Assembly (NCBI RefSeq): GCF_044324875.1
Contig: NZ_CP172185.1
Source of the DNA: Escherichia coli
Lineage (GTDB): Bacteria > Pseudomonadota > Gammaproteobacteria > Enterobacterales > Enterobacteriaceae
Length of the DNA stretch: 64,000 nucleotides
Direction: 5' to 3' (one strand)
Part shown: piece by piece, positions 63,297 through 63,855 of the stretch
Numbering within the stretch: the first letter of the stretch is position 1
How the letters are laid out: each line of letters begins with the position of its first letter
Program-made: the position numbers and the translations under genes
The notes under the pieces: generated by a model
Database searches by the model: none
The model's input: only the letters and a program-made list of their open reading frames with translations
What the model was told of the DNA's origin: nothing

Positions 63297-63609
63297 ACAT
63301 AAAGGAAAAGTATTATCGACCTCCTGTATATTAAAATTGAGTTAGCATAGTGACGAACAGATTTGGCAGGGCATATGTAGCCTGCTCCCCTCCGGGGTTT
63401 AAAGCTCTTTTTGTAAGCAACGGGCGCATGTGCTGACCCACTCATTTGACATCATGACGGTTTATCTGTACGTCACCATAACGCATTTTATAAGAATGTT
63501 TTTTGTCCCATAACAGGTGTCCACTGGTTAAAAAGGTGGGCACCTGTCGTTACCAGTACTGGCTTAATTGCTACATACGGCTGTCGGTTTACGCTTACTT
63601 TCAACTTGT

Positions 63610-63686
63610 GGGTAAGGGGATGGAGTGCGAATAAATGATCGAGCTTCGTGCGAATCACTGATCGAATACATCGGAATGCGCACTCT
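63610..63686. repeat. solo terminal-repeat remnant of an IS21-family element
   Basis: tgatcgaatacatcggaatgcgcac closely parallels the right terminus of the IS21-family copy at 37237-37262 (tgatcgaatagagcggaatacgca); preceded by further gtgcgaat/gatcg repeats; no transposase genes adjacent. Confidence 0.4.
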
Positions 63687-63855
63687 GAAGCAAACTTAAA
63701 ACATCTCTGCACCATTCCATGCACGCATAAAAGTCATTCCGGCATTTCATTTTACATAACATAAACAGAACAATAATAATTACAACAACATTCACACCAG
63801 CATTACAGAACACACTCTGTCTGTTGTTATCACCAGAAATATCAGGAGTATTTAA

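Follow-up and report, generated by a model that had tools for sequence, protein, structure and literature searches.

The published ends of IS21-family elements (IS21 and IS5376) contain the repeats R1 and R2, located 23 bp apart, and a reactive CA, which are needed by IstA (PMC10122671). In the IS110 family, the left end of the element encodes a bridge RNA. The promoter of this RNA forms only across the junction of the right and left ends in the excised circle, and the native promoter takes its -35 box from the right end (PMC11208160). Bridge RNAs function in trans if they are supplied with a promoter (PMC11208160). The IS3-family elements IS1397 and ISKpn1 insert into palindromic units (PMC1525189). 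AfaR, the small RNA of the afa-8 operon, is functional and, according to its authors, consists partly of IS debris, with identity to IS2 described at its 3' end and IS66 unmentioned (PMC3664800).

The stretch of Escherichia coli DNA analysed here, referred to as the window, is 64,000 nucleotides long. Near its end, the stop codon of a permease gene, which ends at position 63296, is separated from the ATG of an lldD-like gene at position 63856 by a gap of 559 bp (63297-63855). The leftover ends of four IS families are located within this gap and occupy positions 63320-63682 (363 bp). The block carries no RefSeq annotation and is of a thoroughly known kind. The gap is very probably a layered scar of four ISs, which joins two horizontally acquired gene modules and lacks a transposition machinery. 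The features of the region are the following:

62052-63296, plus strand: permease gene that closes the left module, aromatic amino acid transport family (as annotated by RefSeq for the identical locus, L001 6763-8007)
63297-63319, no strand: unassigned 23-bp spacer from the permease stop codon to the IS110 left boundary
63320-63494, plus strand: IS110-family left end, non-coding leader, 74-78% identical to leaders upstream of IS110-family transposase genes
63495-63598, minus strand: IS66-family (IS682-like) left end, about 89% identity over 104 nt, E 3e-28
63513-63547, no strand: hairpin inside the IS66 fragment with a 13-bp stem and a 9-nt loop, DNA fold -11.1 kcal/mol, z -4.8
63599-63622, minus strand: IS4-family terminal inverted repeat of 19 bp with 5 inner nt, 17/19 identical to the repeats of an intact IS4-family element
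63623-63682, plus strand: IS21-family terminal inverted repeat of the right-end type, 80% identical to the ISSso4-like right end
63683-63855, plus strand: unique 5' region of the lldD-like gene, 173 bp, not IS-derived, found in carrier genomes only
63856-64000, plus strand: start of the lldD-like gene, a paralogue of FMN-dependent L-lactate dehydrogenase and the first gene of the right module (RefSeq, L001 8567 corresponds to window 63856)

The original prediction, which had been made from the letters of the window, treated the whole of 63297-63855 as a scar of IS21 and IS66 ends. Its extent holds for positions 63320-63682, but not for 63297-63319 and 63683-63855. Both predicted families are present, but the IS110 and IS4 fragments had been missed. 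A 13-nt resemblance of the spacer 63297-63319 to a piece of IS682 tnpA is not significant, as it was reached by 96 of 500 shuffles.

The IS21-family fragment has the layout of the published IS21 ends, with two repeats 23 bp apart and a terminal CA (PMC10122671). The direct repeats of 18 nt are located at 63625-63642 (GTGCGAATAAATGATCGA) and 63648-63665 (GTGCGAATCACTGATCGA), and the tip ...GGAATGCGCA places the terminal CA at 63682. The tip aligns with ...GGAATACGCA at 37262, the end of a second element within the window. This element, at about 34625-37262, is annotated as IS21 family/ISSso4, is bounded by TGC...GCA tips and a cttaag duplication, and has a similar layout, with its repeats 24 bp apart and its CA at 37262. 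The similarity between 63620-63684 and 37200-37264 is 80.3% over 66 nt (E 1.9e-9 in a BLAST comparison within the window). The resemblance to the right terminal repeats at 37200-37262, from which the prediction had started, stands far above chance: the local alignment of 63560-63690 with 37160-37262 has a score of 36, compared to 10.0 +/- 1.9 for dinucleotide shuffles (z 13.5, reached by 0 of 1000). The alignment score is 36 with the right end of the ISSso4-like element and 19 with its left end, and the fragment was therefore assigned to the right-end type.

A complete IS21 element has istA and istB between its two ends, whereas the gap contains only a 60-nt solo end, which, unlike that of the ISSso4-like element, is cut on its inner side by the IS4-family repeat. 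No full IS21-family element with this particular end was found among 5426 complete E. coli genomes. In the STEC639 record CP061233.1 (L019 3500-3535), there is another solo IS21-type right end, ...GATCGAATACATCGGAATCCGCA. It shares 87% identity with window 63638-63682, and neither istA nor istB is annotated beside it. Solo ends of this IS21 lineage occur elsewhere in E. coli.

The IS4-family repeat lies at 63599-63622, between the IS66 tip and the 60-nt IS21 block. Read on the minus strand from its tip at 63622, it consists of CATCCCCTTACCCACAAGT followed by TGAAA. The 19-bp CATCCCCTTACCCACAAGT agrees in 17 of 19 positions with each of the two inverted repeats that bound an intact IS4-family element from a Citrobacter plasmid. 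It also resembles the outside end of Tn5, CTGACTCTTATACACAAGT. Of an IS50/Tn5-like element of the IS4 family, the gap keeps 24 nt only, as the rest was cut off by the tip of IS66. The same IS4 sequence also occurs in E. coli 55989 and in Escherichia fergusonii plasmids, where a truncated IS4-family transposase gene follows about 45-65 bp downstream of it. The search of the 5426 E. coli genomes for a complete IS4-like parent returned truncated remnants only.

IS4-like elements are found inside IS21-family terminal repeats, at the equivalent position of the repeat, in four different replicons (window 63599-63682; L004 3996-4085; L018 3001-3060; L025 2905-2935). These cases involve both types of IS21 ends, and the 9-mers that flank the two sides of the insertion, TTCGCATCT and TTGGCATCC, are similar. 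The observations suggest that the IS4-like element has a target preference for IS21 repeats, or that the junction is an old composite. The homologous units in E. coli 55989 and E. fergusonii carry left-end-type IS21 tips, so that the IS4/IS21 junction in 55989 and in the E. fergusonii plasmid lies beside left-end-type rather than right-end-type IS21 ends. Such recurrent junctions fit a single-ancestor story poorly and hint that the IS4-like element prefers IS21 repeats as its targets.

The IS4 and IS21 fragments together form an 84-bp unit. Its left boundary, TTCAACTTGTGGG, is shared between the window, E. coli 55989, and E. fergusonii plasmids, and its IS21 block retains both direct repeats and the terminal CA. 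Such a unit, or the block as a whole or another part of it, might be a MITE-like non-autonomous element that is moved in trans. We consider this very improbable, as in 55989 and E. fergusonii the 84-bp unit runs directly into the truncated IS4-family transposase gene. Because the unit continues into the IS4 gene elsewhere, its left boundary in the window is the cut made by IS66, and not the end of an element. Furthermore, one IS21-type tip and one IS4-type tip face the same way, there is neither a partner end nor a target duplication, and the unit was matched in only 102 of 20,395 records.

The motif cggtttacgcttac at 63585-63598, previously noted as resembling an IS66 terminus, is the tip of a 104-nt IS66-family fragment (63495-63598). 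The assignment to IS66 was correct, but the size was not: the remnant comprises 104 nt rather than a 14-nt motif. The fragment is about 89% identical over its 104 nt to IS682-like left ends (E 3e-28), with matches in thousands of E. coli records. In the annotated IS682 of O157:H7, the match runs from the left inverted repeat (IRL) through the untranslated region to nt 17 of tnpA. The window fragment correspondingly has the IRL tip GTAAGCGTAAACC at 63598 and continues through the 5' untranslated region into the first codons of tnpA, the ATG of which is the reverse complement of 63509-63511. The tnpA remnant reaches a stop after seven sense codons, and only the first six are derived from IS66. 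The similarity to IS66 is lost immediately past ACGCTTAC at 63598. Features common to the fragment and IS682-like left ends are the GTAAGCG tip, the sub-terminal hairpin, and the tnpA start codon, whereas complete members of the IS66 family differ from it in having an uninterrupted tnpA, here cut after six codons, and tnpB and tnpC, which are absent.

Read on the minus strand from 63598, the sequence GTAAGCGTAAACCGACAGCC aligns with IS682 and with both IS66 tips that are present elsewhere in the window, those of the intact ISEc8-like copy at 42375-44822. Only the tip regions of 25-30 nt of this copy align with the fragment, at 73-88% (88% over 25 nt and 73% over 30 nt). The fragment and the ISEc8-like copy come from different members of the family.

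The IS110-family leader (63320-63494, 175 nt) is 74-78% identical to leaders located directly upstream of IS110-family transposase genes, with database matches at E 2e-17 and 3e-9 in searches of 7-28 Gb. Seven copies from six distinct flanking contexts were aligned, including that of an intact element annotated as 'IS110 family RNA-guided transposase' (L022). The homology of all seven begins at CCTTGTAT, which corresponds to window 63320. The flanks of all the copies diverge to the left of CCTTGTAT, and the left boundary of the IS110 element was therefore placed at 63320. On the other side, the homologous leader ends at the transposase ATG in the intact element (L022) as well as in L005, L021, and L023; in the window it stops about 8-15 nt before the position of this ATG.

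In its homology to a leader of about 180 nt and its predicted long stem, the window segment is similar to the bridge-RNA-bearing left ends of IS621 and its relatives (PMC11208160). RNAalifold predicted a conserved long stem with an internal loop and 26 base pairs, of which two have compensatory changes in an alignment of only six sequences, and one of these two falls in the window copy. The z-scores of single-sequence folds are -1.4 for the window leader and -2.1 for the intact copy. No Rfam family matched the leader at E<=1. The window leader is not known to resemble IS621 itself in sequence. The window piece differs from an intact IS110 element in that it has neither the recombinase gene nor the right end: a tblastn search of the window with the L022 recombinase gave no match better than E 0.35. 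As the right end is absent, the junction promoter cannot form in the window.

The resemblances could in principle be chance matches in AT-rich intergenic DNA, of which nothing is IS-derived. The matches of the IS66 motif to the tips within the window are indeed short (BLAST E 0.038 and 5.3). However, the same two alignments have z-scores of 8.0 and 5.3, and 0 of 1000 shuffles scored as high, so that the motif at 63585-63598 stands above all the shuffles even before its place in the 104-nt IS682-like left end is considered. Together with the z of 13.5 for IS21, the database matches of IS66 (3e-28) and IS110 (2e-17 and 3e-9) in 7-28 Gb searches, and the identity of the IS4 repeat in 17 of 19 positions to both ends of an intact element, this refutes chance resemblance, which has virtually no prospect of being correct.

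The predicted lack of transposase genes agrees with the content of the gap. None of its six longest open reading frames, the longest of which have 78-81 amino acids, has a credible match to any Pfam family, transposases included, and tnpA is cut to six codons. Each of the four fragments is a solo end in the sense proposed earlier: it is terminal, stops at an element tip (IS66 at 63598, IS4-like at 63622, IS21-like at 63682, and the IS110 boundary at 63320), and has no partner end in the gap. The outer tip of each element abuts the internal sequence of the next, as the IS21 fragment is cut by the IS4 tip and the IS4 fragment by the IS66 tip. This arrangement indicates successive nested insertions. 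The contact of the IS110 and IS66 fragments at 63494/63495 (+/- 4 nt), with the microhomology AAGAATG/GATAATA, is of a different kind. The IS110 leader is joined there to IS66 tnpA at codon 6, and because two internal points are joined, the junction is attributed to illegitimate deletion and not to transposition, in agreement with the predicted origin by deletion or recombination.

From the nesting geometry, we infer the following order of events. An IS21-family element whose tip is at 63682 would first have been located upstream of the lldD module. An IS4-family element would then have entered the terminal repeats of IS21 at a distance of 60 bp from this tip, and an IS682-like element of the IS66 family would have inserted 24 bp inside the IS4 end. 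A separate IS110-family element would have been located 23 bp downstream of the permease gene. Finally, an illegitimate deletion that reached from the start of the IS110 transposase gene as far as codon 6 of tnpA in IS66 may have removed the bodies of the IS110, IS66, IS4, and IS21 elements in a single step and fused the permease and lldD modules. No ancestor with intact nested elements was found. That no full copies of the IS21 and IS4 parents were found in the E. coli genomes is consistent with old, decayed elements.

The position of the scar at a module boundary, as had been proposed, is evident from the break of synteny with Klebsiella and Citrobacter. The closest orthologues of the permease, with 86-89% identity, are from K. 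pneumoniae and C. sedlakii. In these species, a trio of regulator, aminotransferase, and permease genes is located between rpoH and livJ and has no lldD beside it, which identifies the gap as the boundary of a module. The homology of the window to the Klebsiella/Citrobacter locus stops 2-3 nt after the permease stop codon. The relatives of the lldD-like gene, at 81-88% identity, are located in unrelated contexts. The two closest paralogues (88% and 85%) lie beside an afa-like operon and beside IS1, respectively, and their similarity to the window extends no more than about 30 nt beyond the ATG on its upstream side. A contig scan for a scar-free source of the lldD side gave only K. pneumoniae ATCC 13883 (81% LldD), where the context is unrelated and the upstream sequence could not be aligned. 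The IS21 tip is regarded as the edge of the right module only by default, as no scar-free source of this module was found. The right edge of the lldD-lldP-MFS module, beyond the window (L001 14626-14910), contains a C-terminal remnant of IS66 tnpC that is split by an IS21-family element with the left tip TGCAAAATCGCATCGTGTTCGATC. With IS debris at both edges, the lldD module is bracketed by IS66 and IS21 remnants.

The gap and its edges are 100% identical in nine complete E. coli genomes, 99.8% identical in a tenth, and interrupted in an eleventh, out of 5426. The ten uninterrupted scar copies in complete genomes are thus alike except for one substitution in one strain, and the same applies to the uninterrupted contigs that encode exactly the same flanking proteins, in which one contig has one substitution. 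Outside the 11 carrier genomes, the sequence 63683-63855 was not found, nor were any repeated relatives of it. Carriage of the island amounts to about 0.2% of complete E. coli genomes, and all the copies are chromosomal; no near-identical gap was present in the plasmid collection. Among the contexts shown for the exact LldD or permease protein, there was no carrier with only one of the modules, and the two genes were always adjacent. Since the scar is identical in all uninterrupted carriers and the genes are always adjacent, it was fixed before the island spread. The island of strain LH50-c adjoins a tRNA-Ser gene downstream of infA and contains CP4-type toxin-antitoxin genes, Ag43, and several IS elements. 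In mosaic genomic islands, seams of IS remnants are to be expected where modules meet and have little importance as such, and the scar at the permease-lldD junction is ordinary debris in this respect. Its map is nevertheless a precise record of the joining of a permease/aminotransferase module with a lactate-utilization module.

A rho-independent terminator, composed of a hairpin and a T-run, follows the permease orthologue in K. pneumoniae and C. sedlakii (L037, L040 6246-6300) and is absent from the corresponding positions 63297-63330 of the window. A promoter and terminator scan found no terminator-like site in 63200-64000. Because the permease terminator is missing and no terminator-like site precedes lldD, transcription could possibly read through from the permease gene into lldD. 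The region 63683-63855 contains one sigma-70-like site, TTTACA-18-AATAAT at 63751-63780, which is not above the expectation from shuffles, and the ribosome-binding site AGGAG of the lldD-like gene is located at 63845-63849.

This arrangement would allow the scar to have been co-opted, either for the transcription or regulation of lldD by read-through or as a functional RNA, that is, an IS110 bridge RNA acting in trans or an AfaR-like small RNA. The IS110 leader retains its central stem, including a compensatory pair, and bridge RNAs act in trans when given a promoter (PMC11208160). However, the -35 box that the bridge-RNA promoter takes from the right end is absent, the window has no IS110 transposase, and the single-sequence fold has a z of only -1.4. 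Moreover, several strains tolerate a 1.4-kb IS3-family element that splits the scar in its middle. Co-option in any of these forms is accordingly unlikely, and the scar is probably functionally inert except as a target for further insertion.

The only Rfam family that aligned with the scar, below its threshold, was AfaR (RF02515), which covers positions 63519-63613 with 27.7 bits (E 0.014; model positions 26-119). Like the window scar, the AfaR small RNA of the afa-8 operon is located in intergenic IS debris of pathogenicity islands, and the hairpin is part of the alignment. AfaR itself is functional while being partly IS debris (PMC3664800), which would speak for an RNA in the window as well. 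Membership of the IS66 end in the AfaR family was nevertheless rejected: 27.7 bits compare with a gathering threshold of 100 bits, and 25 positions at the 5' end and 115 at the 3' end of the model are unmatched. As model positions 1-25 are unmatched, the transcript start and promoter region are not conserved. The match reflects the sequence common to IS66 left ends. The alignment implies that the 5' part of the afaR gene itself comes from an IS66-family left end. The specific proposal that the nearly full-length IS110 leader, when read through from the permease gene, would serve as an orphan bridge RNA for an IS110-family recombinase encoded elsewhere in the genome, or that the region of the IS66 hairpin would give rise to an AfaR-like small RNA, is very improbable. 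If it were true, the junction would be an exapted, RNA-producing IS remnant instead of debris.

In the island, a gene of a PapB/FocB-family regulator is located between lldD and lldP, beyond the end of the window (L001 9810-10049), and about 2.4 kb separate the closest lldD paralogue (88%) from an afa-like usher/AfaD operon upstream of it (L041 1-2612). This lldD lineage is recurrently associated with regulatory genes of fimbrial or afimbrial adhesins.

Dead IS ends can remain visible to other elements. The repeat block of the IS21 end is structurally complete, and the hairpin of the IS66 end (63513-63547) attracts a rare IS3-family element. This element is 1415 bp long, has the ends TGAAGTGCGCCCC...GGGGCGCAGTACA, and is unnamed in annotations; 13 near-full-length copies (>=80%) are present in the 5426 genomes. 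Among copies of the scar, the 9-nt hairpin loop has received it in two independent events, which differ in orientation and by 2 bp in position, with target duplications of 63527-63531 and 63529-63533 (loci L010-L012 and L002). Together with the junctions at loci L046, L047, L048, L049, L050, and L051, all eight junctions examined are in the loop of a homologous IS66-family left-end hairpin. The element thus looks specific for the end of another IS family. In entering one specific kind of hairpin through its loop and in both orientations, it resembles IS1397 and ISKpn1 (PMC1525189), but those elements target REP/PU sequences, whereas the 1415-bp element targets the left-end hairpin of IS66-family elements. 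No literature on an IS3-family element that targets IS66 ends was found among the papers searched, and if the preference holds, this would be a new case of an IS that specializes in the end of another IS family. The targets are of both the IS682 and ISEc8 types and are located on chromosomes and plasmids, with E. coli 042 and the pAA plasmid of O104:H4 among them.
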